A DNA stretch of 45,903 bases from NCBI GenBank assembly GCA_024275255.1, contig JAJRZL010000122.1, positions 1 through 45,903 on the forward strand. Direction: 5' to 3'. Shown here piece after piece: positions 16,437 through 40,831 of this stretch (its first letter is position 1; each line of letters opens with the position of its first letter). The translations under genes were made by a program, and so were the position numbers. The notes under the pieces are model-generated. The model was not told the DNA's origin. It worked only from the letters and a program-made list of their open reading frames with translations, and ran no database searches. This stretch comes from Candidatus Zixiibacteriota bacterium (GTDB lineage: Bacteria > Zixibacteria > MSB-5A5 > GN15 > FEB-12).

Positions 16437-18632
16437 ATGCCAGTATTTGGTGATTTTTGTATAGTAGCGGCAGCGTTAACAACGACTATATCGACCCTTT
16501 TATATCTCTTTGTCTGGCGGGGGAAACATCTATACCGTCAACTGGCTCGGTACTTTTTTACGGCTTCCATGTTAAGTATCGCTGCAGCTCTATTGACTTT
16601 GCTGTTGCTTATTCTGCGGCATGATTTCACGGTAGCTTATGTTTTCTCGTACTCCTCGACCGATTTACCCTGGTACTACCTTGTTTCCTCGTTATGGGGC
16701 GGGCAGGAAGGGACCTTTCTCCTGTGGATATTTTTTGTCTCCATTATGGCATTTGTGATGATGCGCTCGGCTCGTTCCTTTGAGGTCGGCAATATGTTTT
16801 TTGTGAACCTGTTCGTGTTGGCTATTCTTGTTATTCTATTGAAGAAATCCCCTTTCGAGTATTTACCGGTATTTCGTAGCGAAGGGGCGGGATTAAACCC
16901 ATTGCTACAAAATTTCTGGATGACGATTCATCCCCCTATCATGTTTGTCGGGTTTGCCGGTACGCTTTTTCCCTTTGTATATGGATTGACCGGTCTTATT
17001 GAGCGACGGTATGATGTCTGGGCGGAAGCGGCTCGCAAGTGGACCCTGTTTGCCTGGACGGCGCTTGGTGTTTCCTTAGTGATGGGCGGATACTGGGCAT
17101 ATAAGACCCTCGGCTGGGGGGGATTCTGGGCATGGGACCCGGTAGAAAACTCCTCCTTTATTCCCTGGATTTTCCTCACTGCCCAGGTGCATACCCTGTT
17201 TATCAAACGACAAAGGCGAGGGTTGATGCGTTTTTCATTGATAATTGTCTGCCTGACGTTTTGGTCGGTTCTGTATGGGACTTTTTTGACCCGGTCAGGA
17301 GTCCTGGCTGATTTTTCGGTGCACTCATTTGTCGATCTTGGCATTAACAATTTTCTCATTGGTGGTTTGTTGCTGTTTGTCGGATTGGGGAGCTACCTGT
17401 TATTGCTCCGCTGGCAGGATATCAAGCCGGGACCGTCGTATTCCAGGGTGGCATCTCGTTCGTATGTCGTCACCCTTGGTATAGTCGTGCTTTTTCTTGG
17501 AGGGATATTAACATTACTGGGGACCTCCGCCCCGCTACTTACCCGGTTTGCAGAGAACCCATCAAACGTTGGAATCTCGTACTATTTTGCTACCATGACA
17601 CCGGTGGCTATTGTTGTTTTGTTTCTGTTGGCGTTGTTCCCCAGTCTGAAGTGGAATCATGGTATGAAACGACCGGCGCTCCTTTTTGTCGGCGGCGTGA
17701 TTGGACTGATTACCGCTCTTCTCTTATTTATTGTGGGGGTTACCTCCCAGGTACTATACTTACTCTTGTTCTGGGCTGCTGTATGGGCAATACTATCCAA
17801 CGGTTATATTGTATATTCCTCGTGGCGCACGAAGGGAATGCAGGCGGCATATTTAGCACATATCGGTATTGCCGTCGCTATTGTTGGAGCTGCGGTATCG
17901 GCAGGATTTGAAAAGAAAAAGACAATTACTTTGCCACAGAGCCAACTGGTGAATGAGAGTGGATATTCCATGCGGTTTACTGAATTAGAGGAAACTCCGA
18001 AAGGATTCAACTGTCATGTACAAGTAAAACGAGGCGGTACGGAGTTTGTTGCCATCCTCCCGCATGAGTTTCCAAAGAATCAGGAAGGGGTTATGCGTAA
18101 GCCGTATGTGGAAAAATTTCTCGGGTACGATTTCTATATGTCCCCCCTTGCTTTGGAAGAACCTGAAAACAACAATACCAACCAACTCATATTATCCAAA
18201 GGGGAAACAGCTTCATTTGATAAATATACAATTACATTTCATGATTTTGAGTTGGGTAGTCATGGTGAGGAAGCCATGACAGAAGCAAAAGCATTATTAA
18301 CCGTTGTATACGAAAATACGGAAGAAGAAGTTGTCCCCTCGATTCGGCTGGTAGGCGGAACGTTGGAAACCACTCCGGGAAAATTCGATTACGGCAAAGC
18401 ATCGGTAGTTATTGCCGGAGTACGCCCTGAGGATGGCTCGGTTGTTCTTGAGTTCCGGGGCGACTTTTTACCGCAAACGGAACTTCAGACTGCTTCATTA
18501 GTTATTGAACTTTCTGAAAAACCGTTAATAAATCTGTTCTGGCTGGGGACTATCCTGGTCTTTATATCGGGGGCACTTTCAATGCAAGAGCGGCGTAAAC
18601 GACACAGTGCAATTGCCGTAAAGCAATCCTAA
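16437..18632 (+). CDS. ccmF: CcmF/NrfE-type cytochrome c haem lyase (system I)
   Basis: The protein is polytopic, with the Trp-rich haem-handling motif WGGFWAWDPVENSSFIPW, plus HPPIMFVGFAG and AHIGIAV. Confidence 0.8.
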   Translation: MPVFGDFCIVAAALTTTISTLLYLFVWRGKHLYRQLARYFFTASMLSIAAALLTLLLLILRHDFTVAYVFSYSSTDLPWYYLVSSLWGGQEGTFLLWIFFVSIMAFVMMRSARSFEVGNMFFVNLFVLAILVILLKKSPFEYLPVFRSEGAGLNPLLQNFWMTIHPPIMFVGFAGTLFPFVYGLTGLIERRYDVWAEAARKWTLFAWTALGVSLVMGGYWAYKTLGWGGFWAWDPVENSSFIPWIFLTAQVHTLFIKRQRRGLMRFSLIIVCLTFWSVLYGTFLTRSGVLADFSVHSFVDLGINNFLIGGLLLFVGLGSYLLLLRWQDIKPGPSYSRVASRSYVVTLGIVVLFLGGILTLLGTSAPLLTRFAENPSNVGISYYFATMTPVAIVVLFLLALFPSLKWNHGMKRPALLFVGGVIGLITALLLFIVGVTSQVLYLLLFWAAVWAILSNGYIVYSSWRTKGMQAAYLAHIGIAVAIVGAAVSAGFEKKKTITLPQSQLVNESGYSMRFTELEETPKGFNCHVQVKRGGTEFVAILPHEFPKNQEGVMRKPYVEKFLGYDFYMSPLALEEPENNNTNQLILSKGETASFDKYTITFHDFELGSHGEEAMTEAKALLTVVYENTEEEVVPSIRLVGGTLETTPGKFDYGKASVVIAGVRPEDGSVVLEFRGDFLPQTELQTASLVIELSEKPLINLFWLGTILVFISGALSMQERRKRHSAIAVKQS

Positions 18633-18755: not shown

Positions 18756-19058
18756 GTGGCTAAAATCAAAATGGGTTTCCTATCGGAGCTTCCCCCGGGG
18801 AAGATGATAGAAAAGCGGATTATGGCTCGTCGCATAGCTGTTGTGAACGACGCCGGAAAGATTTATGCGATTGAATCCGATTGCAAACACATGAAAGCCT
18901 CCCTGTCAACTGGAAGGGTAGCCGATGGAATGGTCACCTGTCGCTGGCATAGTTGGAAATATGACCTGTCAACAGGGGTTTGTGTGACAAATGAAGGATT
19001 TACGTTGAAGACATATCGAACGGAAGTTGTTGAGGGTGTTATTTATGTGTTATTATAA
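18756..19058 (+). CDS. Small Rieske [2Fe-2S] domain protein (NirD-like)
   Basis: CKH...CRWH gives the Rieske CxH / CxxH ligand pairs. The start is GTG, with an alternative ATG at 18771. Confidence 0.7.
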   Translation: MAKIKMGFLSELPPGKMIEKRIMARRIAVVNDAGKIYAIESDCKHMKASLSTGRVADGMVTCRWHSWKYDLSTGVCVTNEGFTLKTYRTEVVEGVIYVLL

Positions 19059-20776: not shown

Positions 20777-22471
20777 ATGAGAAAGGATAAACGTATGGAC
20801 ATTGAACGCGAAATCCTCGAAACAGATATAGCAATTGTCGGGGCGGGACCGGCAGGATTGGCGCTGGCTTATAAATTGGCGCAGCTCATCGAAGCCGATG
20901 GCTCGGTCGATATGCCGGAAATTCTCCTGATGGAAAAAGGTTCCCATTGCGGAGCACATGCTCTTTCCGGGGCGGTTATGGATCCCCGTGGGTTGGCGGA
21001 GTTAATCCCCGATTATATCGAAAAAGGTGCTCCCTTGTCTGCACCTGTTTCCACTGACAGCATGTATTATTTGCGTAAGTCAGGGGAATTCAAGTTTCCC
21101 TTTTTACCGCCGTCATTGAGTAATCATGGTAATTATGTCATTTCCCTTAACCGGCTGACTTCATGGCTCGGTGAACAGGTAGAGGCAAAGGGGATTGATA
21201 TTTTTGCCGGCCTTGCCGGATATAATCTTGTCATTGAAGATGGCGTAGTAAGCGGTATTCAGACGGTTGATATGGGGCTTGATAAAGAAGGAAATCCAAA
21301 ATCCAATTTTGAACCGGGTTCGATTGTCAAAGCAAAGGTTACGGTTTTATGCGAAGGAGTTCGTGGTTCGTTAACACGCCAGGCATTGGAACAAATACCG
21401 GAACTGACAGCGGGGCGACTGCCCCAGACATTCCTGACCGGTGTCAAAGAGGTCTGGGAAATTCCCGAAGGACGTATCAAAGCCGGTGAAGTTATCCATA
21501 CTATCGGTTGGCCCCAGCCGAACCATGAATACGGCGGCGGCTGGGTTTACGGAATGAGCAATACCATGGTCTCGGTCGGCTATGCTGTCGGGTTGGATTC
21601 TCCCGATCCCACCAACGATCCTCACATGAAATTCCAGCGGTACAAAACCCACCCGGTATTGAAGAGAATCCTTGAAGGCGGCACCATGCTTCACTACGGG
21701 GCAAAAACAATCCCCGTGGGCGGGTATTATTGTATGCCGAAACTTTTCCACGCAGGGTTGCTGCTTTGTGGAGATTCTGCCGGTTTTCTTGACCCATCTC
21801 GTTTGAAAGGAGTGCATCTGGCGATTAAGTCGGGGATTATGGCAGCGGAAACGCTGTTTGACTGTCTGAAGGATGGCGATTTCTCTCCAGGTAAACTTGC
21901 CGGATATGAACAACGATTTGAAAATAGCTGGTCAAAACGTGAGTTATATAAATCACGCAATTTCCATGCAGCGTTCAAAAATGGTCTCAAGTCGGGGATG
22001 TTCCATGTCGCAATCCAAACCCTTACCGGAGGAAGAGGGCTGTTTGATCGACGGGAGCACAAACCGGATCACGAATATATGCTCACGATTGAAGCCTTTA
22101 CGAAACGATTCGGTCAAAAGCCACACAAAGAATCAATCAAGTTTGATAATTCATATACATTCGATAAATTAACTGATGTCTATAAGTCGGGTACTCAACA
22201 CGAAGAAGAACAGCCGCCACATCTGGTGATTGCTGATTATGATATATGCAATAATCGTTGCACCGAAGAATATGGTAACCCTTGCCAACATTTTTGTCCG
22301 GCGCATGTATATGAGATGGTAGAGGATTCCGAACGTGACGTAAAGTTGAAACTACAACTTACCCCGTCGAATTGTGTGCACTGCAAAACCTGTGACATCG
22401 CCGATCCATACCAGATAATACGCTGGGTAACTCCCCAGGGTGGTGAGGGTCCGAATTACGAGAATTTGTAA
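20777..22471 (+). CDS. Electron-transfer flavoprotein:quinone oxidoreductase (ETF-QO)
   Basis: It has the FAD motif IVGAGPAGLALA and a C-terminal 4Fe-4S region CVHCKTCDI. The alternative start ATG 20795 has a better SD. Confidence 0.85.
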   Translation: MRKDKRMDIEREILETDIAIVGAGPAGLALAYKLAQLIEADGSVDMPEILLMEKGSHCGAHALSGAVMDPRGLAELIPDYIEKGAPLSAPVSTDSMYYLRKSGEFKFPFLPPSLSNHGNYVISLNRLTSWLGEQVEAKGIDIFAGLAGYNLVIEDGVVSGIQTVDMGLDKEGNPKSNFEPGSIVKAKVTVLCEGVRGSLTRQALEQIPELTAGRLPQTFLTGVKEVWEIPEGRIKAGEVIHTIGWPQPNHEYGGGWVYGMSNTMVSVGYAVGLDSPDPTNDPHMKFQRYKTHPVLKRILEGGTMLHYGAKTIPVGGYYCMPKLFHAGLLLCGDSAGFLDPSRLKGVHLAIKSGIMAAETLFDCLKDGDFSPGKLAGYEQRFENSWSKRELYKSRNFHAAFKNGLKSGMFHVAIQTLTGGRGLFDRREHKPDHEYMLTIEAFTKRFGQKPHKESIKFDNSYTFDKLTDVYKSGTQHEEEQPPHLVIADYDICNNRCTEEYGNPCQHFCPAHVYEMVEDSERDVKLKLQLTPSNCVHCKTCDIADPYQIIRWVTPQGGEGPNYENL

Positions 22472-30835: not shown

Positions 30836-31360
30836 CTATGACCCTTTTGTCTTTTCTATCAATTCCTTCAATTTACGGAGTGTGTCCGGGTCGGCATCAT
30901 CAATCATGTTTTTCAAATCATTTTGCAGGCTAACCTGTTCGGCGAGTTGTTTTTCCTCTTCGCTGGTATCCATTCCCAGCAGACGCTTGATAGCAGCGAC
31001 ATAGTTGTCCGGTTTGACCGGTTTCTCAAGGTAAATCCCGGGACCGGACATAGTCAGTTCTTTTAAGTCTGCTTTCCCGATATCATCGCGGGCGTGTCCG
31101 GTGACAATGATAATGGGAATTTTCGACCACTCTTTGTTCTTGTTCAGGTCATGGTAGAACTTTGCGCCGGAATGTTTCGGCATTACAAGATCAAGTGAAA
31201 TCAAGTCGGGTGGTTGTTCTTTTACTTTTTCCAGCGCTTCAAAACCATCCGATGCTGTTACAACCTCAAACCCGGCTTCAACCAGCGCTGTTTTCAAAAA
31301 TAACCGGACATCCGCTTCATCATCCACGACCAGAATTGTTTTTCTGGTTGTTGTTCCCAT
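30836..31360 (-). CDS. Single-domain response regulator (REC) with short C-terminal helical tail
   Basis: The receiver pattern is ILVVDDEADV...DLISLDLVMPKHSG...LEKPV. Confidence 0.85.
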   Translation of the reverse strand: MGTTTRKTILVVDDEADVRLFLKTALVEAGFEVVTASDGFEALEKVKEQPPDLISLDLVMPKHSGAKFYHDLNKNKEWSKIPIIIVTGHARDDIGKADLKELTMSGPGIYLEKPVKPDNYVAAIKRLLGMDTSEEEKQLAEQVSLQNDLKNMIDDADPDTLRKLKELIEKTKGS

Positions 31361-31400
31361 GTATTCCCTCCTGATATATCAGGACTTCAGGAGTCCTTGC

Positions 31401-32885
31401 CTACGATTGTTCCTTTTTCAATTTTTGTTCTTCTTCGTATAATGCCGTCAGGCGTTTGAATGGAAACTCCATGCGAAACCGCGAGCCTTTTCCCGGAGTG
31501 GAATCGACAAAGATTTTTCCGCCATGTTCCTGCACTATCTTGCGTGTGGTCAAAAGCCCAAGTCCGGTTCCCTGCCCTCCCTTGGTGGTGAAAAAGGTGG
31601 TAAATATTTTTTTCTTCAGTTCATAGTCAATACCACTGCCGTTATCGGAGACTTCGAACATAAGCTTGTCGCGTGTTTCCCATACCCGAATGATAACGTC
31701 GGAGCCCTTTTTCTCACTCATTAAACAGGCATCAATAGCATTGGAAACGAGGTTGGTCAGGCAGGTATGGATACCGTCGGGATCGAGCGGAGCTTGTTTC
31801 ATTTTTGACGGAATATCGGCTCGCAGTTCGATACCTGAGCGGGCTGCTATTTCTTTGTACAACCCCACTATTTCTTTTACAATCTCACCCGGATCAACCA
31901 TTTTCAGTGACGGCAGGCGTCCCTTGGAGAAACTCAGGAAGTCTTTCACCAGGGCTGTTGTTTTTTCGAAATTGCGTTCCAGCATTTCCCAGCCTTCGCT
32001 AATCATTTTCTTGTCATTCTTTTGCAGCCCAAGACTGACAATATATTTCCCGCCTTCCAGTCCCATCAGGATATTTTTAATACTGTGTGCCAAACCGGCA
32101 ACAGTTTGACCTACTGCTCCCAATCGCTCGGCTTCGATAACCTGTTGTTCGAGTTTTTTCAAATCAGTGACATCGGTTGAGATTTCAATAACGTGTGCTA
32201 CATTATCACCGGTACGTTTCAAAGGCGAGGTAGATACGACATAATAAATATCCTGTCCCCGCTTACTGGTGCCGACTTGATTGGAGCGGTGGATTTTCCC
32301 GTCCCGGAATGTTTTTGCCGCCGGACAGTTTTTGCATTTCGAATCGCGACGTTTATACACTTCGTAACAGTAGTGATTGATGACATCGCCGAATTTTTCC
32401 CGGAAAGCTTCGTTTGCCCGGACAATACGATACTGTTCATCAATCACGGTGATATAGCATGGCACCCGATCGAACAGTATCTGGTATTCCTGCTGCCATT
32501 GTGCGGTTTCAGTAACCGGTCGTATCATTTCCAGCACATATTCAACTGGGCTGTGTTCCGTTCGTTTCAACGGGGCACAATGACCGACATAGTGCGTTTG
32601 TCGTCCGTGTTTATCAAATCCGACAGAATCAGTGACAATTGCCTTTCCTTTTTTGAACACAGTAAGAGCAGGACATTCATCACAAGGGGTCATCCGTTGT
32701 TTATGAACTGTGTAGCATTTCTTCCCGTGCCAATCGCCAAAATGTTCGGTGAAATTTTTATTTGCTTCCACGATATTATAATCCCGGTCAATTATTGCCA
32801 CGTTAAAAGGCACATGTTGAAACAGCGACTGGTATATCATATCAGTCAGCCGACGTGGGACTTTTGACCTGGATTCAGCAGCCAT
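31401..32885 (-). CDS. Soluble PAS-PAS sensor histidine kinase
   Basis: There is no TM segment. It has two PAS-like domains, each with a C-x10-C-x2-C motif, an H-box (GLAHSIKNIL) and HATPase motifs (NLVSNAIDA, DNGSGI, GTGLGL). Confidence 0.85.
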   Translation of the reverse strand: MAAESRSKVPRRLTDMIYQSLFQHVPFNVAIIDRDYNIVEANKNFTEHFGDWHGKKCYTVHKQRMTPCDECPALTVFKKGKAIVTDSVGFDKHGRQTHYVGHCAPLKRTEHSPVEYVLEMIRPVTETAQWQQEYQILFDRVPCYITVIDEQYRIVRANEAFREKFGDVINHYCYEVYKRRDSKCKNCPAAKTFRDGKIHRSNQVGTSKRGQDIYYVVSTSPLKRTGDNVAHVIEISTDVTDLKKLEQQVIEAERLGAVGQTVAGLAHSIKNILMGLEGGKYIVSLGLQKNDKKMISEGWEMLERNFEKTTALVKDFLSFSKGRLPSLKMVDPGEIVKEIVGLYKEIAARSGIELRADIPSKMKQAPLDPDGIHTCLTNLVSNAIDACLMSEKKGSDVIIRVWETRDKLMFEVSDNGSGIDYELKKKIFTTFFTTKGGQGTGLGLLTTRKIVQEHGGKIFVDSTPGKGSRFRMEFPFKRLTALYEEEQKLKKEQS

Positions 32886-33294
32886 GGGTATGCCTTTTCT
32901 TTTTTCGGGGTGATGAAGTTAATGTGTCGATTGTTTTCAGGAATTTGGCAACATTTATGGGTTTTTCCATGAAACAGTCAGGCAACGGAATAGATTCATC
33001 AGGAATATATGAACGAAAATCGAAATCATCAGTTTGTATAACCCCACTGATGACCAGTACCGGAATCTCACGTGTTGCTGGTTCCTGTTTCAGTTTTGAG
33101 TACATGGAAATACCGGATTCCTGCGGCATCATAATGTCAAGGCAGATGAGCACCGGGCAGATTTTTTTTGCCGATTGGAACCCATGTTTTGCATCCGATA
33201 CGACAACCGGGTGATACCCGTTCGTTTTCAGGATTGCAGCAAGATAGGTTGCCACATCCGGTTCATCTTCAACTATGAGAATATCCTTACTCAT
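32875..33294 (-). CDS. Single-domain response regulator (REC)
   Basis: The receiver pattern is ILIVEDEPDV...VLICLDIMMPQESG...MEKPI. It overlaps both neighbouring genes (8 and 11 nt). Confidence 0.85.
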   Translation of the reverse strand: MSKDILIVEDEPDVATYLAAILKTNGYHPVVVSDAKHGFQSAKKICPVLICLDIMMPQESGISMYSKLKQEPATREIPVLVISGVIQTDDFDFRSYIPDESIPLPDCFMEKPINVAKFLKTIDTLTSSPRKKKRHTHGC

Positions 33295-35176
33295 TCTTAT
33301 GTAACTGTTCCTTCTCCTGTTTGAGATTCACACCCGGTATGACAACATGGTTGAAGTATGGTCCGGACAGGTGTTTGCTGATTTCTGCCTTGAGGTATTT
33401 TGGCGGGGCTGACTGATGACAGGTGGTGCAGAGCGCAAGGTTCTTTTTGTCCGACAATTCCTCTGCTTTTTTCTTATGACAGGAAACACATAACTCGTGC
33501 ATTGCAGTGACATACGGTGGAGCGGTATAGTTTTCCACTTTGATGGGATTGTCACTGGGGAGTAAATCAAGATGGCAGTCATCACATTTTTTTGCTGTCT
33601 CCGCCTGTCGTTCTTTTCCTTTTGGATGACACTGGGTGCAGGCGATATTTCCACCATGAGCATCAGCATGCCAGTCATGGTTGAACGCATCAGTGGGAGA
33701 ATACATGTAACGGTGGCATTCCCAACAGCCGGTAGCTTTATCCATCGGCATATTCATATGGTGGCATTTGTCACAGGACTGCTTTTGCCCAAGACTGTCA
33801 ATATGTTGGGTATGGGCAAACAGGACACCGTACTCGTCATGGTTACCATCAATAAAAAGGGTGTCGCCACCTCGTGCTTTTTGTACCGGGACAATTTCCA
33901 CCCCTTTGCTTTCTATCTTGTGACTTGGTATAAGTGCAAAACCAAGAGCAAAACTGAGCAGAAGCACCAGAGTGTATTTGGTACGGGCGGCGAGGGGCGG
34001 AGTTCCCAGCCACACTTCCGAAGTATGATCAAATACCGGCGGGGTATAGGGTTCCCATTCGGGGTCCTGAGGTTTCTCTTTCCATATATGGAATCGTTCA
34101 ATAGCAAACAGAAACGCAAGACATGCCGCAGAGACGACCCCAAGACTGATTGTTATTTCCATCCATGAAGGCACATAAGTATCGCCGGTCGCCCGTAGCA
34201 TGGTCAGGCCGCCGACATTGATGCGGTTGAAAATCATGCCGAATACTACCATTGATGACCCTACCCATTGTCCGGCGGTACTGGTGCGTACTTTTTTTAT
34301 GGAAAACAGGATGATGGGAATAACAGTGGAAATCAACATTTCCAGAATAAACAAATATGATTCCCACGAGCCATCAAACATAAGATGCCATTCACCCGAG
34401 AGCCAGATGTCAGCCATTTTTACTATGAAATAAATAGATAATACCCAAACAGCTGCTTTTGCCAGTTTTTCGACAAGGTTGGTTTCCGGTTTCCGACGAA
34501 ACAGCCAGTGGGAGACAAGGCTTTCATAAGCAATCATCATCAGTCCAAGAGCAACAGCGGAAATAAAAAACAGCAGGGGAAGAATATGTGAATACCAGAG
34601 TGGGTGCAGTTTGAAGGGCATAATAAGAAACAAGGAACCGAGAGAAGACTGATGCAACGTAGAAAGCATAATACCCAACAACACCAGGGGAAAACGGAAT
34701 TTCATCAGGATACGCCGAATCCTTGCATAGCGGCTGGTTTCTTCAAGTGGAACCGGGCTGAATTCAAGAAGCAGTACCGTGGTGTAAAGCATTACGCACC
34801 AGCCGACTTCGAACAACGGTGAATGAGGGTTCCAGTATATCATCATGTGCCAGATATTCCACGGCAGCCCCAAGTCGAACAACAACCCGAACACAACAGC
34901 GAGATATCCAAGAAATGCGGTTAGTACTGCCGGTCGGACAAAGCTGTGAAATTCCTCTCGTTTGAATATGTAGAAAATAGCAGTAATAACAAATCCGCCC
35001 GCTGCCAGTGCTACTCCAGCCATGACATCGAAGCCAATCCAGATTCCCCACGGGGTGGCATCGGTAAGGTTGGTGGTTGCACCCAGACCGAACAGAAAAC
35101 GGGTAATACCGACCGCTCCGGCAAATCCGACAATTGACCAAAGAATAAGCTTGGTGATGCGAACTCGGTTATTCAT
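33287..35176 (-). CDS. NrfD/PsrC/DsrP-like polytopic membrane subunit fused to a C-terminal hexahaem cytochrome c domain
   Basis: The first ~400 aa form a multi-TM domain of NrfD type. An extra TM follows, then six CxxCH motifs (CDKCH, CWECH, CTQCH, CDDCH, CVSCH, CTTCH). Confidence 0.8.
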   Translation of the reverse strand: MNNRVRITKLILWSIVGFAGAVGITRFLFGLGATTNLTDATPWGIWIGFDVMAGVALAAGGFVITAIFYIFKREEFHSFVRPAVLTAFLGYLAVVFGLLFDLGLPWNIWHMMIYWNPHSPLFEVGWCVMLYTTVLLLEFSPVPLEETSRYARIRRILMKFRFPLVLLGIMLSTLHQSSLGSLFLIMPFKLHPLWYSHILPLLFFISAVALGLMMIAYESLVSHWLFRRKPETNLVEKLAKAAVWVLSIYFIVKMADIWLSGEWHLMFDGSWESYLFILEMLISTVIPIILFSIKKVRTSTAGQWVGSSMVVFGMIFNRINVGGLTMLRATGDTYVPSWMEITISLGVVSAACLAFLFAIERFHIWKEKPQDPEWEPYTPPVFDHTSEVWLGTPPLAARTKYTLVLLLSFALGFALIPSHKIESKGVEIVPVQKARGGDTLFIDGNHDEYGVLFAHTQHIDSLGQKQSCDKCHHMNMPMDKATGCWECHRYMYSPTDAFNHDWHADAHGGNIACTQCHPKGKERQAETAKKCDDCHLDLLPSDNPIKVENYTAPPYVTAMHELCVSCHKKKAEELSDKKNLALCTTCHQSAPPKYLKAEISKHLSGPYFNHVVIPGVNLKQEKEQLHKNE

Positions 35177-35209
35177 TTGTTTTGTCCCCTCCCTTGTCTT
35201 GTGCCAGTT

Positions 35210-35932
35210 TCATCCGTCGTCGAATAATCCAGTTGATTCCATACATCGCCCCCCCATACCGACAAATGCAAACGGCACTGCTTTCATTGCCAGTCTGGTA
35301 GTTGCCGGTAACGGGGTCGCTCCTGGATTTGGCTGATAGGCAAGAAAACCAAGGTCGATATCTGAGATATACAGGACAGAAGTCCCTCCGACTTCATGTT
35401 CCCCCCAAACCTTATGAATATATGTATCCGGTTCCTGTTTTATACGATGGTGTGCCTCTGCCAGTAGTTCATCACGCTCACCAAAAATGGTCGCCTTTTG
35501 AGGGCAAACTTCCGTGCAGGCAGGTTGTTGTCCTCGTTGTAAACGGTCGTAGCACATGATACATTTGCGGATATAGGGAACTACCTGATCCCAGTCATAA
35601 CGGGGAATACCATACGGGCAAGCCATCATACAGTAGCGGCATCCGAGACAACGTTCACTGTCATAAATAACCGGACCTTCCGGCGTCTTTTGCAAAGCAC
35701 CAACCGGGCAGACAGAAGCGCAAGCCGGTTCGAGACAATGACGGCATTGTTTACGAATATAATGATTCCCCGGTTTCTGGAGTACGGAGGTCCAGTTCTG
35801 CGCTGAAAGTCCGTCGTTTTTCTGCCAGACACGGGGGACATCCGTACCCAGATTGTTTACGGTTTTACAAGCGGATACACACTCTAGGCAACCGATACAT
35901 TTAGTAATATCAGTCAGGATAGCAACACTCAC
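35210..35932 (-). CDS. Four-cluster 4Fe-4S ferredoxin-type subunit (NrfC/PsrB/DsrO/HmcB-like), no recognisable signal peptide
   Basis: The Cys groups are CIGCLECVSAC, CRHCLEPACASVCP, CLGCRYCMMACP and CIMCYDRL...ACTEVCP. The GTG start overlaps the upstream TGA (GTGA). Confidence 0.85.
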   Translation of the reverse strand: MSVAILTDITKCIGCLECVSACKTVNNLGTDVPRVWQKNDGLSAQNWTSVLQKPGNHYIRKQCRHCLEPACASVCPVGALQKTPEGPVIYDSERCLGCRYCMMACPYGIPRYDWDQVVPYIRKCIMCYDRLQRGQQPACTEVCPQKATIFGERDELLAEAHHRIKQEPDTYIHKVWGEHEVGGTSVLYISDIDLGFLAYQPNPGATPLPATTRLAMKAVPFAFVGMGGRCMESTGLFDDG

Positions 35933-36633
35933 ACCGGCGCTCCTTTCTTGTTGAGTGTGGTACAGATAGCATCATCAGTATCTGCCGGGAATTTCCACGC
36001 CAGATTGGAAACGAATTGCGACAACGGCATTAATACGCAATGCGCTATCTTGGTGAATGGCATCAGAATGAAAATGAGCTCAGCCGATAACACATGAGTC
36101 AGCATGAGCAACTGGTAGAGCTTTGGGCTGATAGTGAGATTAGCGCATACATAACCGGATATAAAAGGAACCAGCAACAGCAGGGGCCAGAGATAATCCT
36201 GAAACCGACTGAGGAAACTCGAGGAACGGGTAAATACTCTCCCGATAAATAAAGCAATACCGCTGGCAATAGTAAGAATAGTCAGCCAGTCAGCCCACTC
36301 TTTCGACAATGTGAACCAACCGAACCCGATAGCCTGTTTCCACAGGTGCACATGTGCAAACAGAAATACTGGAACCAACAGTAACCCGACATGAAATAAT
36401 ATGGAAATACTGCTGAATATCGGTCGGTATTTGAACACCCGGTTGATTGGGATAAACCACTGGAGGCTACGGCTGATTATCAACCCCCACGGGAGGTCTT
36501 TTTCTCCGGCTTTGCGATAGGCATCGTACGCACCCAGCAAGTCCAATACAATAACCCGTAACAATCCCAGCGCCATAATGGCAAAGCTGAAACGAAAGAA
36601 GGGACCGCGGGCGAAATCAAGCAACGCATCCAT
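35929..36633 (-). CDS. NarI/DsrM/HdrE-like membrane di-haem b subunit
   Basis: It is a ~5-6 TM protein with conserved His in TM helices (FHVGLL, HVHLW, LTHVL) and the family-typical MPFTKIAHCVLMP motif. Confidence 0.7.
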   Translation of the reverse strand: MDALLDFARGPFFRFSFAIMALGLLRVIVLDLLGAYDAYRKAGEKDLPWGLIISRSLQWFIPINRVFKYRPIFSSISILFHVGLLLVPVFLFAHVHLWKQAIGFGWFTLSKEWADWLTILTIASGIALFIGRVFTRSSSFLSRFQDYLWPLLLLVPFISGYVCANLTISPKLYQLLMLTHVLSAELIFILMPFTKIAHCVLMPLSQFVSNLAWKFPADTDDAICTTLNKKGAPV

Positions 36634-36636
36634 ACG

Positions 36637-38124
36637 CTATACCTCCTTTAGGGTGTCATGTTTTTTCTCAACGGGGATTTTCAGGGAATCATCGAATATG
36701 ATGGCTTTGTAAATCAGGTCGTGCAACCCGACAACTTCGCAGTCAATCCCCTGGTCTTCGACCAATTCCCGTAATTGTTTCTTGCAGTTAGCGCACGGTG
36801 CCACTAACACCTCACAACCACATGCCCGGATCTGGTCGGCTTTCAGTTTACCGCCTACGGTTGTCCGGTAGGGACGGATCTCATCGATGGAAACCGTTCC
36901 GCCGCCACCGCCACAGCAAATGTTGTCATCACCGTTGGGGGTCATTTCGATATAATTAGGACAAAACGCTTTCAGGAGTTCACGCGGTTGCTCAATTATC
37001 CACCGTTGGCGGGCAAGGTTGCAAGGGTCATGGTATGCAACTTTTTCGGTAACGACGTTGGGATCGAGTTTCAAGCGTCCTTCTTTCCAGACCCGGTGGG
37101 TATATTCGATGATATTGATTACCGGAAAAGCATCTTTATAACCACAATAGGTTGGCAGGAAACATTTGGCACTTCGGGAGGCATGACCACATTCTCCAAT
37201 GAGGACGTTTTTCCCATTCAGGCGGCGTGTTTCGGCATCAACTTTTTTCACAATACGCTCAAGCATCCGGTCGCTGTAAAACAAGCCGTAGTTGATGCCA
37301 TCAAAGTAGCCGGTACCGATTGTCCATGAATCACCGGTGGCAGTGAAAACCGCAGCAATACCCATCAAAGTTTCCGCTTCCATCAGAAAATCACTGACTG
37401 CCGGGAAAAAGACATAGTCAGCACCTTCAACATCAATGGGAAACTTGATTTCCACTCTCTTGTCCTCAAGCATATCTTCGGAGAGGAACTCAAGCGTGTC
37501 CAGTAATGCCGGGACCGGGATAGCAGATGTATTCCCGGATGCACCTTCCAGTTGTTCGCGGGTGCTGACCACCAATGCCCGGGGAGCGATACCGATTTCA
37601 CTTAAAATGTACCTCCCCAGATGAGTAATAAGTCCGTGGTCGATACCGGTTGGACATTCCAGGGCACAGCGTCGGCAGGCAGTACAGTTCCAGAAGCTGT
37701 CTGCCATTTCTTCAATCATCTCATCCGTCAGGTGACCGGTTACCAGCAGGCGTCCTTTGAGCATTCCACCGAGAGTGAAATGACGACGATACACGTTCAA
37801 CAGGAGTTCCGAGCGATAGCAGGGAATATCTTTCGGGTCGCCGGTAGCCTGATATATTTGACAGGAAGTAGCGCAACGGGCGCATTTGGCAGTGGACCGA
37901 ATATAATGGTCAAGTGCCAATCGATAACTGGAATGTTTCAGGATTGCTGCAAATGCCTGAAGAAACCGGCGCGGGCGGTCTTCGACATCATAGTCCTCGA
38001 CATGATAACGAACCGGTAACCGCTGGCGTTCTATTACCTCCGGTTTTTTGGGGATAGCAAATGCCTTTTTACGTTCCTCAGGGGTTATAATGTTTGTTTT
38101 TATTCTCATTCTATGCTCCAGCAA
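36637..38124 (-). CDS. HdrD/DsrK/HmeD-like Fe-S oxidoreductase with CCG domains
   Basis: It has two ferredoxin-type Cys motifs (CARCATSC...C and CTACRRCALECP) and CCG-type motifs (HDPCNL...NICCGGGGG, APCANCKKQL). Confidence 0.8.
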   Translation of the reverse strand: MLEHRMRIKTNIITPEERKKAFAIPKKPEVIERQRLPVRYHVEDYDVEDRPRRFLQAFAAILKHSSYRLALDHYIRSTAKCARCATSCQIYQATGDPKDIPCYRSELLLNVYRRHFTLGGMLKGRLLVTGHLTDEMIEEMADSFWNCTACRRCALECPTGIDHGLITHLGRYILSEIGIAPRALVVSTREQLEGASGNTSAIPVPALLDTLEFLSEDMLEDKRVEIKFPIDVEGADYVFFPAVSDFLMEAETLMGIAAVFTATGDSWTIGTGYFDGINYGLFYSDRMLERIVKKVDAETRRLNGKNVLIGECGHASRSAKCFLPTYCGYKDAFPVINIIEYTHRVWKEGRLKLDPNVVTEKVAYHDPCNLARQRWIIEQPRELLKAFCPNYIEMTPNGDDNICCGGGGGTVSIDEIRPYRTTVGGKLKADQIRACGCEVLVAPCANCKKQLRELVEDQGIDCEVVGLHDLIYKAIIFDDSLKIPVEKKHDTLKEV

Positions 38125-38135
38125 GCATTACCTGT

Positions 38136-38939
38136 TTATTGCAGGTTATTCTGAGTTGTATGTATTTCTTTTCCTGTCTTTTTTGGTGTTGCAAGTGACG
38201 CCTTTTCGTGGTTCAATACCGGTCCTTGTAAAATTGGCAGTTTATCCGGTGAGTGAGGTTCACCTGCTATATCTTTTGTATCAGGATCAATAAGCTCAAT
38301 GCCATATTCACGGCAGCACTCTTCAATATTGGGTCGGGAAGGGCATATATACACCCGGGCATGATATCCACTGGGGGTGGCATGATGAAATTCCTGAATC
38401 TCCTGCGAATGACGGTAAGTTTGCGCTCCACAACAGATAGCAACTTTTACCGTGCGATGACAACAAGGGCATTCAATTTTTGCCACCAAATCAACAAGGT
38501 AATGGTCTTTATCGGGTGCCGGAGTGACCCGGTACCCATGAGATTCAAAAAGGTTCTTTGCCCAGTCAACAAGGTCGTTGTGTGAGATACTGCATGATTC
38601 AAAGGCTTCATCGGGGGGACAGCTATGGGTGGTTAATTCTCCCGCAAGGTATTTTTTCAGAGTCGTTGAGAAGGATTCGCCGATATTGCAAATAACAGTT
38701 ACCCCAGAAGCCGTGAGCATATCACGGTAAAAACCTTTGATACCATTGCAAATTAACGTTCCGACTTTGTGCATCTGGAGCAGGCGAACTCTCCGGAGAC
38801 CTTCCTGACCGGAAAGATTGACAACCTGTGAAGATAGAACCCGGTTGCTTTTGTCAACTTCAGCTATCCAGAATGTTCCCGCAGCTTCAAAACAGGGGGC
38901 TATCTGGGTACCGAACTGTGGTATTGCAATTTTCACCAT
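38136..38939 (-). CDS. NifX/NifB-C-terminal-like (dinitrogenase FeMo-cofactor-binding fold) protein with a Cys/His-rich C-terminal extension
   Basis: The N-terminal ~105 aa (VKIAIPQFGTQIAPCFEAAGTFWIAEVD...LICNGIKGFYRDMLTASGVTVI) fit the small NifX-like family. The C-terminal ~150 aa carry CPCCH, CC and ECC motifs. ATG 38939 is preferred over TTG 38951 because of the promoter position. Confidence 0.6.
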   Translation of the reverse strand: MVKIAIPQFGTQIAPCFEAAGTFWIAEVDKSNRVLSSQVVNLSGQEGLRRVRLLQMHKVGTLICNGIKGFYRDMLTASGVTVICNIGESFSTTLKKYLAGELTTHSCPPDEAFESCSISHNDLVDWAKNLFESHGYRVTPAPDKDHYLVDLVAKIECPCCHRTVKVAICCGAQTYRHSQEIQEFHHATPSGYHARVYICPSRPNIEECCREYGIELIDPDTKDIAGEPHSPDKLPILQGPVLNHEKASLATPKKTGKEIHTTQNNLQ

Positions 38940-38959
38940 CTCCTCCAGCAATAAAGTAA

Positions 38960-38975
38960 TGCAACAGTTGTGCCA
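38960..38975 (-). promoter_or_regulatory. Sigma-54 (-24/-12) promoter for the redox-complex operon
   Basis: The minus strand reads TGGCAC-AACTG-TTGCA, a perfect match to TGGCAC-N5-TTGCW. The predicted start site is about 10 nt upstream of ATG 38939. A sigma-54 activator gene lies next door. Confidence 0.65.
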
Positions 38976-39037
38976 AATACATGAACGTTTTTATTATGTT
39001 GGTATGTAATGGGTTATGCGTTTGTTGGTTGAGGTGG

Positions 39038-39122
39038 TGTTGCATATATCGCAACACATACTGTTGCGTTGCAATAGCTACTTGTTGCGTTGCAACACTT
39101 CACTGGTAGTGTTGTTGCAACA
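39038..39122. promoter_or_regulatory. Four TGTTGC/GCAACA palindromic sites; candidate upstream activator sequences for the adjacent enhancer-binding protein
   Basis: The sites are TGTTGC-N7-GCAACA (39038-39056), TGTTGCGTTGCAA (39062-39074), TGTTGCGTTGCAACA (39083-39097) and TGTTGCAACA (39113-39122). They lie 65-150 bp upstream of the sigma-54 promoter. Confidence 0.45.
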
Positions 39123-39132
39123 GTTGAACTAT

Positions 39133-40473
39133 TCAGGGAGTGATGCCGTAACGCTTGAGTTTACGCCAGAGAGTAGTTCGGTGAATACCCAGTTCGCGGG
39201 CGGCGTGGGTGATATTTCCCTTATATTTTTTCAATATCGTAATTATCCGGCTTTGTTCGTCCATCGGGGTTTCATCTTCGCTGCTGCTTGAAGTTGCCTG
39301 ATACTTTGCTGAATCTTCCGGTTGTAACAGTTCGAGGGGGAGATGTTCCTTTTTGATGATGCTGCCATGACAGATAACAAAACCGTATTCGATGATATTT
39401 TCCAGCTCGCGGATGTTCCCGGGGTAGTCGTGCTGCATAAGGATAGTCATAACTTCCGGGCTGACACTGATAATACGTTTCCCTTTACGGGCATTGAATT
39501 TTTTGATAAAATGGTCAACAAGGTACGGGATATCTTCACGCCGGTCTTTTAGGGGAGGGAGTTCAAATTTCACTACTGCCAACCGGAAGTATAAATCATC
39601 ACGAAACTTCCCCTGTGCTACCAGTTCTTTGAGGTCCTTGTTGGTAGCAGCGATGATACGAATATCAGCCTTGACCGGAGAAGTACTGCCGACTGGTTCG
39701 TATTCGCGTTGTTGCAGTAACCTGAGGAGTTTGACTTGTGTTGACAGGGGCAGGTCACCTATTTCATCAAAGAACACTGTTCCTCCGTTTGCCTGGGCGA
39801 GCTTGCCTTCTTTGTCCTGCTTGGCATCGGTAAAGGCGCCTTTCACATACCCGAATAATTCTGATTCAAACAGTTGATGGGGCAGCGTGCCGCAATTGAT
39901 AACCACATGCTTTTTCTCACGACGAGGGCTCAAACTGTGAATGGCATGAGCGAACAGTTCTTTACCGGAACCGGAAGGACCCTGAATGAGCACGGTACTT
40001 TCGCTTTCGGCAATATCAGGGAGGATGGCAAACAGCTTATGAATCTTGGAGCTTTTAGAAATGATGTCTTCAATCGAGTATTTTTTGTCCAGTTCTTTGC
40101 GTAAATGTTCGATAGCTGATAAATCACGGAATGTTTCCACCGCTCCGAGAACATTACCGGCATCATCACACAAAATTGCCGTAGAGATGCTGATAGGGAT
40201 TCTTTCTCCGCGACTGTTGATAATGCTCACCGGTCGGTCGATAGTTTCCATTCCGGTTTGCAGGGTTTGTTCGAGCAGGCAGTGCTCGCAAATATCAGAA
40301 TGAAGCACATCGGCGCATCGTTTACCGATTGCTTTTGATGCCGGGATACCGGTTATTTTTTCCGCAGCCCGGTTGAAGCTGGTAATAATGCGATCGTTAT
40401 CAACAGTAAAGACACCATCGGCAATAGAGTTCAGGATTACTTTGAAAAATCGCAGGTCTTCAGGGTCATTCAT
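39133..40473 (-). CDS. Sigma-54-dependent transcriptional activator (PAS - AAA+ - Fis-type HTH), no receiver domain
   Basis: It has Walker A (GPSGSGKE), ESELFGYVKGAFTDA (a GAFTGA variant) and a C-terminal HTH (ITHAARELGIHRTTLWRKLKRYGI). The start ATG 40473 has the SD AGGAAAGAGG upstream. The 57-codon ORF extension looks non-coding. Confidence 0.9.
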   Translation of the reverse strand: MNDPEDLRFFKVILNSIADGVFTVDNDRIITSFNRAAEKITGIPASKAIGKRCADVLHSDICEHCLLEQTLQTGMETIDRPVSIINSRGERIPISISTAILCDDAGNVLGAVETFRDLSAIEHLRKELDKKYSIEDIISKSSKIHKLFAILPDIAESESTVLIQGPSGSGKELFAHAIHSLSPRREKKHVVINCGTLPHQLFESELFGYVKGAFTDAKQDKEGKLAQANGGTVFFDEIGDLPLSTQVKLLRLLQQREYEPVGSTSPVKADIRIIAATNKDLKELVAQGKFRDDLYFRLAVVKFELPPLKDRREDIPYLVDHFIKKFNARKGKRIISVSPEVMTILMQHDYPGNIRELENIIEYGFVICHGSIIKKEHLPLELLQPEDSAKYQATSSSSEDETPMDEQSRIITILKKYKGNITHAARELGIHRTTLWRKLKRYGITP

Positions 40474-40831
40474 ACTGTTTTGTATCACCTCTTTCCTTTT
40501 CCTAATAAGTATACACAAATGACTATATAAAGGAAACTGCCAAATCAACATGAAACTGACAAATGTTATCTTACCGGATATCAAATACATAAGCTTTTTT
40601 GTGGATAAATTTTGTACAAGTTTATTCACAAAAAGTAATGTCATTACAAGTGAAACATCAACTTTTGATTGACAATTATTACCCGTAAAGACAATTTAGT
40701 ACCGTCCAGGGTTTGGTGCCGGGTAGCCTGTTTGTAATTTTCTCAATAACATACATTATATGGCTACTTTACCTGAGGGAGGTAGTTGGAGATGAAAACA
40801 TTTGAACCGTGATGTATTAAGGAGTATGTGA

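Follow-up and report, generated by a model that had tools for sequence, protein, structure and literature searches.

An NrfD-hexahaem cytochrome c fusion in a membrane electron-transfer complex conserved in Zixibacteria and other uncultured FCB lineages, an apparently undescribed variant of those of sulfate reducers

The Hmc and Tmc complexes of Desulfovibrio are viewed as conduits carrying electrons from the periplasm to the cytoplasm, with DsrC as one suggested partner (PMC4215793). The logic of Hmc is that of a periplasmic multihaem cytochrome c, an iron-sulfur (FeS)/NrfD module, a cytochrome b and a cytoplasmic CCG protein (PMC10924467, PMC4215793), and DsrMKJOP is likewise built of two modules, a cytochrome b with a CCG protein and an FeS protein with an NrfD subunit and a cytochrome c. 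Two questions about these complexes are still open in sulfur bioenergetics: which cytoplasmic partner Hmc and Tmc have, and what the FeS/NrfD/cytochrome module does in complexes of the Dsr type (PMC4215793, PMC10861901). Here we describe an eight-gene operon of a Candidatus Zixiibacteriota bacterium, found on the minus strand of contig JAJRZL010000122.1 (assembly GCA_024275255.1), of which the stretch from position 1 to 45,903 was analysed (45.9 kb; hereafter the window). Its four-gene core encodes a CCG protein, a cytochrome b, a four-cluster ferredoxin and an NrfD subunit that is fused to a hexahaem cytochrome c. Among membrane electron-transfer complexes of the kind known from sulfate reducers, the core is a conserved, distinct variant, widespread in uncultured lineages of the FCB group and apparently undescribed. 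No paper describing this architecture was found in the literature; a published survey of tail-anchored proteins of the twin-arginine translocation (Tat) pathway describes only unfused modules (PMC10924467), and a review of the NrfD family mentions no fusions.

The defining component is the fusion protein, which has 629 residues, 10 + 1 transmembrane (TM) helices and six CXXCH motifs. Its first part (34067..35176, minus strand) is an NrfD domain of the HmcC/HybB type with ten TM helices and a cytoplasmic N-terminus; an eleventh helix then leads into a periplasmic hexahaem cytochrome c domain in the same chain (33287..33979, minus strand), which is matched by the Pfam families Cytochrom_CIII and C7. 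In NCBIfam, the membrane part scores 327.5 bits as HmcC (cutoff 550), 279.8 as HybB and 113 as QrcD (cutoff 570), and the Pfam NrfD family PF03916 gives 65 bits (cutoff 25.8). With its NrfD Pfam domain and its ten helices obeying the positive-inside rule, the membrane domain belongs to the ten-helix HybB/HmcC/ActC subgroup of the NrfD/PsrC family. The counts of lysine plus arginine are 2, 3, 2, 3, 3 and 5 in the inside loops and 0, 0, 1, 0 and 1 in the outside loops, which puts the N-terminus on the cytoplasmic side and the haem domain on the outer one. The six CXXCH motifs (at residues 468, 484, 513, 531, 563 and 583) and six additional histidines (455, 458, 473, 500, 503 and 560) are 99-100% conserved in 81 sequences, and the presence of six invariant histidines beside six haem-binding motifs fits a set of six bis-His haems. 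The AlphaFold model of the fusion, modest in confidence (pLDDT 64.8), reproduced the 10 + 1 helix layout and was used solely for the helix count and for family-level fold matches; a sequence search of the PDB with this protein found nothing. An inverted, cytoplasm-facing NrfD module of the SoeABC kind was also considered and was rejected, since the canonical orientation follows from the positive-inside pattern and from the cytochrome c domain, which must be periplasmic.

The fusion, noted in a preliminary description of the window made from the sequence alone, is far from being a peculiarity of this locus. A scan of GTDB species representatives gave 503 relatives positive for the pattern, and the locus counts in this work refer to the best 80 of these 503. 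All 80 carry the fusion, a few of them interrupted by contig ends, and the core is thus present in at least 80 species-level genomes, namely Zixibacteria, metagenome-assembled genomes (MAGs) labelled Ignavibacteria or Melioribacter, 'Bacteroidetes' MAGs and Kryptoniota; the taxon labels of the MAGs are those of their submitters. The gene order of CCG protein, cytochrome b, ferredoxin and fusion, K-M-O-P in the Dsr nomenclature used by the preliminary description, is kept in every one of these loci that is long enough. Among proteins, the fusion falls into more than 120 clusters at 63-72% identity, all of about 620-630 residues, and those with a name come from Zixibacteria, GN15 or the FCB group. 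After clustering at 50% identity, at least 18 of the top 150 representatives match the fusion over both domains in one stretch, and the six CXXCH motifs were retained in three representatives that were inspected at 30-54% identity. Over the whole system, nearly all predicted cofactor ligands are 97-100% conserved, most of them 100% (33-81 orthologues, depending on the protein), which indicates a functional system under strong constraint. The current database labels of these genes are generic ('Ni/Fe-hydrogenase cytochrome b subunit', 'formate dehydrogenase iron-sulfur subunit', 'NifX family protein'). In three loci from Ignavibacteria or 'Bacteroidetes' MAGs (L057, L060 and L074), two convergent copies of the core stand back to back.

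On the cytoplasmic side of the complex, the first gene of the core (36637..38124, minus strand) encodes a CCG iron-sulfur protein of the DsrK/HmcF/TmcB type, a putative protein di/trisulfide reductase. It scores 281.5 bits as DsrK (cutoff 400), 212.6 as HmcF (750) and 209.5 as TmcB (735), all below the NCBIfam cutoffs. Two 4Fe-4S motifs, one CCG motif and the cysteine of a GECGH sequence form a signature common to DsrK, HmcF and TmcB (PMC10861901, 2024). The protein has all of the motifs by which DsrK is recognized in that work: two 4Fe-4S motifs, GECGH (C312/H314) and a single CCG motif (C368...C403C404G...C444xxC447), 98-100% conserved in 64 orthologues. The identity of the whole protein across related loci is 73-85%, and a sequence search of the PDB gave one weak match only. 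The sequence RPRRFLQAF near residue 50, tried as a Tat signal, is probably none: it lies inside the region aligned with the DsrK profile, its hydrophobic stretch is not long enough, and proteins of the DsrK type reside in the cytoplasm.

The next gene (35929..36633, minus strand) encodes a NarI-like dihaem cytochrome b of the HmcE/TmcC type with about five TM helices. TmcC (110.9 bits, cutoff 240) and HmcE (104.8 bits, cutoff 275) are its sole NCBIfam matches, both below cutoff, and DsrM gave no match at E <= 0.01. Four histidines on two helices (H81, H94, H180 and H198) are invariant in 69 orthologues; the PDB sequence search found nothing for this protein. In one MAG the cytochrome b and ferredoxin genes are read as a single ORF (open reading frame) of 432 residues (L063:7707-9005), probably a frameshift or an assembly artefact.

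The preliminary description had placed a four-cluster ferredoxin at 35210-35932; the four cluster motifs and their 16 cysteines are indeed there, invariant in 75 sequences, but a frameshift and a C-terminal tail anchor had been overlooked. The gene as called ends at 35210 and gives 240 residues because one G is missing from what is now a seven-G run at 35249-35255. Orthologues run past the sequence '...FVGMGG' into a C-terminal TM helix followed by KRR or RRR, and at this point the window copy diverges and stops. With one G added, the product has 254 residues and a C-terminal TM anchor, the gene ends at 35169 (35169..35932, minus strand), and it overlaps the next gene as it does in other genomes, so that the gap of 33 nt seen 3' of the uncorrected gene is an artefact. 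Corrected in this way, it is a tail-anchored 4x[4Fe-4S] protein that scores 239.7 bits as HmcB (cutoff 420; aligned from profile position 36), 199.6 as HybA, 107.8 as DsrO and 76 as QrcC (cutoff 400), with 87.7 bits for Pfam Fer4_11. Its 16 cysteines and the tail anchor, lost in the window by the frameshift, assign the family to the HybA/FdnH/HmcB four-cluster subgroup, and FdnH is its best sequence match in the PDB. FdnH is itself signal-less and hitch-hikes on FdnG.

The absence of an export signal from the ferredoxin, already reported in the preliminary description, is a property of the whole family. The window copy has no N-terminal signal, and in 73 of 74 orthologues a stop lies at most 16 codons 5' of the conserved MS(K)AILTD start, which makes a signal peptide impossible. 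At the other end, the tail anchor is present in all 74 (lengths 250-266 residues) and a basic triplet follows it in 69. Despite the missing signal, the topology looks periplasmic from the sequences: the globular domain is placed outside by the way in which the NrfD domain is oriented, by the basic residues past the anchor and by the existence of Tat-bearing FeS-NrfD fusions. Such natural fusions, in which a tail-anchored four-cluster protein and an HmcC/HybB-like NrfD domain share a single chain, were seen among the 50%-identity representatives P0185, P0190 and P0214; clear twin-arginine signals are found in P0190 and P0214, and none in P0185. A subunit that appears periplasmic and lacks an export signal family-wide offers a well-defined test for hitch-hiking or for non-canonical Tat export.

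Among the closest described complexes is HmcABCDEF of Desulfovibrio vulgaris. Four of its six subunit types (HmcF, HmcE, HmcB and an HmcC-like protein) are represented, with best or near-best profile matches, and the overall logic of Hmc outlined above is shared. However, the 16-haem HmcA is absent, and the only c-type haems of the operon are those of the six CXXCH motifs fused to the NrfD subunit by the extra helix. There is no HmcD either; the order is F-E-B-C instead of A-B-C-D-E-F, and the gene overlaps leave no room for an extra ORF. HmcB carries its own Tat signal whereas its counterpart here has none, the cutoffs of all four Hmc models are missed by the margins given above, and in place of the Desulfovibrio regulators rrf1/rrf2 the locus has an OrpR-like enhancer-binding protein (EBP), a kinase and receivers. 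TmcABCD shares the succession of CCG protein and cytochrome b (B then C); TmcC is the top match of the cytochrome b, and the DVU0259 family is the top match of both receivers. Unlike the present core, Tmc has no FeS/NrfD module, and its separate tetrahaem TmcA and its TmcD are not encoded here. As for Qrc (QrcABCD), in which a Tat-bearing, molybdopterin-like QrcB carries the signal-less QrcC, no QrcB-like gene is present and the QrcC and QrcD scores are far below their cutoffs.

The likeness to DsrMKJOP lies in the two-module plan and in the GECGH sequence with a single CCG motif; a genomic link of the core to dsrAB/dsrC is seen in part of the related loci and not in the window. The parallel with DsrM, K, O and P drawn in the preliminary description is borne out for the CCG protein, which scores best as DsrK, but the other subunits stand closer to the Hmc and Tmc models: the counterparts of M, O and P score better as HmcE, HmcB and HmcC. 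The membrane-anchored trihaem DsrJ is absent, as had been stated, and the hexahaem domain of the NrfD subunit stands in its place, no separate multihaem gene being present in the operon. The ligation differs as well, since three distinct types (His/His, His/Met as well as His/Cys) have been proposed for DsrJ while all six haems here are apparently bis-His.

Two other relatives deserve mention. In the Ohc-like modules (PMC10924467), a tail-anchored FeS protein and a quinol oxidase that resembles HybB are combined with a c-type cytochrome, much like the FeS/NrfD pair and its cytochrome c in the present core, and a signal-less tail-anchored four-cluster protein also has its precedent in that work. 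In those modules, however, the cytochrome is unfused, whereas here it is fused to NrfD, with a cytochrome b and a CCG protein as further subunits; furthermore, the signal-less ferredoxin on record adjoins a Tat-dependent FeFe hydrogenase (PMC10924467, Microbiology 2024), while no Tat-bearing partner is found nearby here. ActC and ActF of alternative complex III (ACIII) are ten-helix NrfD-type subunits and were the sole significant Foldseek matches of the fusion model, but the sequence identity is only 12-18%, and ACIII has separate ActA/ActE cytochromes and a Tat-exported ActB. The core is thus set apart from Hmc, Tmc, DsrMKJOP and Qrc, because it lacks features that define membership of each. 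The preliminary assignment to a transmembrane redox complex of the DsrMKJOP/Hmc family with a non-canonical composition is upheld by the NCBIfam matches and the domain architecture, and no subunit reaches the NCBIfam cutoff of any characterised complex.

Evidence bearing on function comes from the neighbourhood of the core in relatives. Either dsrA or the gene of 376 residues preceding it lies within 9 kb of the core in 23 of the 80 related loci, in three arrangements. In the first, the core is followed directly by the 376-residue gene and dsrABDNLC-T-M. In the second, it is followed by a receiver-kinase-receiver set, a second dsrMK-like pair, DUF134/NifX and dsrA. The third is found in loci of the activator type, with the dsrMK-like pair upstream and the 376-residue gene downstream. 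Locus L079 gave profile scores of 585 bits for DsrA (cutoff 393), 603 for a DsrL-like protein (516) and 118 for DsrC (53.5), and in L055, a locus from Kryptoniota, the genes directly after the core are the conserved 376-residue gene and those for a pair of NIR_SIR proteins (a ferredoxin insert is present in the second), for a CobB/CobQ-like protein and for a GltD-like Fe-S flavoprotein. The presence of dsrABCD in MAGs of Zixibacteria and Ignavibacteria is on record (PMC6018805). An adjacency kept through such rearrangements speaks for a functional link, and the cytoplasmic partner, which the preliminary description had left without a name, is likely to be of the DsrC type. A compact four-gene core that stands beside dsrAB-dsrC in some uncultured lineages provides independent genomic support for the link of such complexes to DsrC.

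Two features of these dsr-linked neighbourhoods are worth recording in their own right. The gene directly 5' of dsrA, of about 370-380 residues, is found in some 23 loci of the Ignavibacteria/Kryptoniota type (L055:11446-12576, L079:6573-7679 and equivalents); an InsA-like zinc ribbon was recognized in it, along with a weak match to Mutator transposases, and the window has no homologue. It could be a domesticated transposase that acts as a dsr regulator. A second, divergent pair of dsrM-like and dsrK-like genes (329 and 551 residues; DsrK 337 bits, below cutoff) lies with a receiver gene beside the core at L050:13000-15634, and similar pairs, placed either upstream of the activator or in the interval from the sensors to dsrA, occur in L031, L033, L039, L054, L056, L062 and others.

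Taken together, we favour, with moderate confidence, the reading that the operon encodes a transmembrane electron conduit of the Hmc/Tmc type in a lineage-wide configuration of its own, with a DsrC-type partner and with expression controlled through a redox-responsive, OrpR-like sigma-54 system. Like all functional statements in this work, it rests on homology and gene neighbourhood. The hexahaem domain, joined by helix 11 to the ten-helix quinone-interacting subunit of the NrfD/HmcC type, would exchange electrons with periplasmic carriers; the tail-anchored HmcB-type protein would connect both the quinone site and the dihaem cytochrome b with the haems; and the cytochrome b would pass electrons across the membrane to the cytoplasmic CCG protein of the DsrK/HmcF type. 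There, a non-cubane cluster and the GECGH cysteine would act, by reduction or else by oxidation, on a protein di/trisulfide, and the protein concerned is most probably of the DsrC type. Electrons may also be able to flow the other way, a possibility discussed for Hmc in syntrophy (PMC4215793). A redox-regulated conduit shared by Zixibacteria, Ignavibacteria and Kryptoniota would improve the metabolic reconstruction of these lineages, which are widespread in sediments and the subsurface.

Several observations weigh against this reading. The window contains no dsr, apr, hydrogenase or formate dehydrogenase gene; the preliminary description had made a point of this, which as regards dsr holds for the window only, in view of the 23 dsr-linked loci. 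Most loci of the Zixibacteria type likewise have no dsr gene within 9 kb of the core. Where dsr genes are linked to it, DsrA is 88-93% identical among the loci, so a limited clade may account for some of the adjacency signal. Every subunit falls below its NCBIfam equivalog cutoff, which means that function is transferred from relatives and not from orthologues. Finally, the ferredoxin has no export signal, its window copy is frameshifted, and none of the 80 loci encodes a Tat-bearing partner near it, which leaves a gap in the model of assembly.

The lack of dsr genes in the window and near most Zixibacteria-type cores is also what would be expected from a sulfur-independent respiratory module, an explanation that we regard as rather unlikely. 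Modelled on the Cbc-type modules of Geobacter or on Ohc-type modules, the complex would then be a quinol:cytochrome c oxidoreductase, or work in reverse, with acceptors or donors, for example metals, in the periplasm or outside the cell, and the CCG/cytochrome b pair would pass electrons to, or take them from, some other cytoplasmic thiol or Fe-S couple. Modules of a tail-anchored FeS protein, a HybB-like protein and a cytochrome c that have no conserved neighbours are known (PMC10924467), iron-cycling cytochrome systems have been reported in Zixibacteria (PMC3903129), and the window also encodes CcmF and an ETF:quinone oxidoreductase (ETF-QO). On the other hand, the CCG subunit retains the full catalytic signature of DsrK, HmcF and TmcB at 98-100% conservation, the core keeps its place beside dsrAB, or beside the gene before it, through three arrangements in 23 of 80 loci, and no genes for outer-membrane or extracellular cytochromes are conserved beside it.

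The missing export signal and the dsrAB-less Zixibacteria can also be accommodated in another way, to which we assign a similarly low probability. The core may be an FCB-specific, self-contained conduit, with an Fe-S subunit that is periplasmic without a Tat signal and a DsrK-like subunit that reduces a disulfide other than that of DsrC in dsrAB-less Zixibacteria. The Fe-S subunit might hitch-hike on a Tat-dependent partner encoded elsewhere, which would then define the electron donor, or it might follow an undescribed route of export through its conserved anchor at the C-terminus and the basic triplet by which the anchor is usually followed. The Cys-rich NifX-like protein, which is co-transcribed, would be a candidate for the disulfide substrate. 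If true, this would amount to a new thiol-based branch of anaerobic respiration.

Much less probable than either is the proposal that the core is a true, rearranged orthologue of DsrMKJOP (K-M-O-P with J fused) and serves as the terminal DsrC-trisulfide reductase of these phyla. It has in its favour the best match of the CCG protein, to the DsrK model, the parallel of the subunits with K, M, O, P and a cytochrome, and the loci that adjoin dsrAB. However, the DsrK match stays well short of its cutoff and a DsrM match is missing, the FeS protein scores 240 bits as HmcB against 108 as DsrO, the NrfD part gives its 327 bits as HmcC, and the haems are apparently all bis-His, unlike those of DsrJ. 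Moreover, locus L079 has a canonical-type dsrM (238 bits, in a gene truncated by the contig end) after dsrC-dsrT in the same locus, and loci of the Ignavibacteria type have the second dsrMK-like pair. Judged from these sequences, the core is a set paralogous to DsrMKJOP, neither its orthologue nor its replacement, the latter because L079 carries the canonical-type dsrM after dsrC. Finally, that the window copy is a decaying, non-functional locus is highly improbable: its ferredoxin product is cut to 240 residues compared with 250-266 in all 74 orthologues, and the frameshifted form has been carried into the public protein record of the contig, but a single-base lesion in a homopolymer is a typical sequencing or assembly error, the remaining genes and all ligands are intact, and a 94%-identical relative has an intact ferredoxin to which the out-of-frame tail is still a near-perfect match, so that the missing G is probably such an error or else a very recent event.

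Returning to the conduit with a DsrC-type partner, its operon was found to be organized as first described. The nine ORFs of the preliminary description, the eight genes and an activator gene upstream, were all recovered on the minus strand with the same boundaries, and their domain assignments agree with the Pfam and NCBIfam profile matches. Successive genes of the operon are separated by 11, 3, -4, 33, -8, -11 and 40 nt, negative values being overlaps. The sigma-54 (-24/-12) promoter, TGGCACaactgTTGCA at 38975-38960 on the minus strand, is the sole zero-mismatch match within the window, and GGAGG stands directly 5' of the ATG at 38939 of the first gene, which encodes the NifX-like protein. 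The ORFs, the gaps and the unique perfect promoter match thus all agree with eight packed, co-directional genes behind a consensus sigma-54 promoter. In relatives, 30 of 35 EBP-type loci have the sequence GG(C/T)A-N8-GC 5' of the NifX-like gene (background about 7%), and none of 21 loci without the EBP has it 5' of the CCG gene (background about 12%). Repeated TTGCA/TGCAA half-sites, read from the sequence at 39039..39125 (minus strand), are probable upstream activator sites; they form the inverted repeats GTTGCAACGCAAC (39096-39084) and GTTGCGATATATGCAAC (39055-39039), and TTGCA-N3-9-TGCAA occurs at the equivalent position in 18 of 35 orthologous loci compared with 0.9% of random windows.

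The activator itself (39133..40473, minus strand) is an OrpR-like EBP with a PAS domain, a sigma-54 AAA+ domain and an HTH_8 domain (Pfam Sigma54_activat 221 bits, PAS, AAA_lid_14, HTH_8). Its ORF is formally extendable to 40644, but the additional 57 codons (40474-40644) are hydrophobic, of low complexity and missing from orthologues; the length of the latter, 448 residues, supports the start at 40473, and from the sequence the extension is probably not translated. In OrpR of Desulfovibrio, C52, C61 and C65 together with D/E54 bind a redox-sensitive [4Fe-4S] cluster, and the protein activates only at low redox potential (PMC8359166); OrpR (DVU2106) also has the variant sigma-54 contact loop GAFTDA (PMC4641369). 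The window activator has the same GAFTDA loop, a PAS motif C53-x8-C62-x2-C65 that is 100% conserved in 33 orthologues, and D55 two residues past C53. Set against the published description of OrpR, the spacing of the cysteines is one residue apart, C-x8-C-x3-C in OrpR and C-x8-C-x2-C here. By this analogy the PAS triad probably holds a redox-sensitive Fe-S cluster, for which reason the adjacent EBP would be expected to activate the sigma-54 promoter, and so to turn the operon on, at low redox potential.

The resemblance to the orp locus of D. vulgaris (DVU2103-2109) goes beyond the activator with its three-Cys PAS motif and GAFTDA loop. Both have a palindromic upstream site, in both a sigma-54 promoter drives a gene whose product has the NifX/orange-protein fold, and in related loci a DUF134 and small NifX pair adjoins the activator. 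The palindromes differ, being GGGCGYRTTTTGCGCCC in Desulfovibrio and TTGCA-N-TGCAA in the window locus. A larger difference lies in the target: the OrpR regulon consists of two orp operons only and is tied to cell division, whereas here the promoter drives a respiratory complex. If the activator is truly OrpR-like, Fe-S-based redox sensing by PAS domains would reach beyond Desulfovibrio and be tied to a respiratory target.

The last three genes of the operon would add a second, co-transcribed sensory layer. The first is a stand-alone receiver (REC1; 32875..33294, minus strand; Pfam Response_reg) that is syntenic across most loci. It is followed by a PAS-PAS histidine kinase with no evident hydrophobic segment (31401..32885, minus strand; Pfam PAS_4/PAS_9/HATPase_c) and by a second stand-alone receiver with a C-terminal helical tail (REC2; 30836..31360, minus strand; Pfam Response_reg 79 bits), which is 61-78% identical across loci. 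For both receivers the DVU0259 family is the best NCBIfam match, at 81 and 85 bits against a cutoff of 160. In the kinase, C57/C68/C71, C173/C184/C187 and H267 are invariant in 47 orthologues, each PAS domain thus having a triad C-x10-C-x2-C that resembles the Fe-S-binding triad of the OrpR PAS domain but differs from it in spacing. With cysteine triads in the PAS domains of both activator and kinase, the regulatory layer is best read, by analogy, as redox sensing through Fe-S or thiol chemistry. Sigma-54 control and sensors built into the locus, as claimed in the preliminary description, are evident from the promoter kept across EBP-type loci and from the regulator genes; the dedicated two-tier regulatory set is also there and resembles the known OrpR/ORP module.

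The first gene of the operon (38136..38939, minus strand; PF02579) encodes a two-domain protein with an N-terminal NifX/NafY/orange-protein fold and a Cys-rich C-terminal domain of unknown fold. The AF2 model has a pLDDT of 87.6, and the C-terminal half (38136-38600, about residues 115-267) is confidently modelled as an alpha-beta domain. In a Foldseek search, the N-terminal domain alone was matched, among others by the D. gigas orange protein (ORP; 2wfb), and the C-terminal domain had no significant PDB match, with only a weak, non-significant resemblance to nuclease-like folds. The residues C64, C157, C160, C169, C170, C209 and H244 do not vary among the orthologues. Proteins with both domains form a small family of 194 matches, confined to Zixibacteria and Ignavibacteria.

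Elsewhere in the window, three genes on the plus strand bear on c-type haem and quinone metabolism. These encode a CcmF-type cytochrome c maturation protein (16437-18632), a small Rieske protein (18756-19058) and the ETF-QO mentioned above (20777-22471), and together they fit an organism that has c-type cytochromes and a quinone pool.

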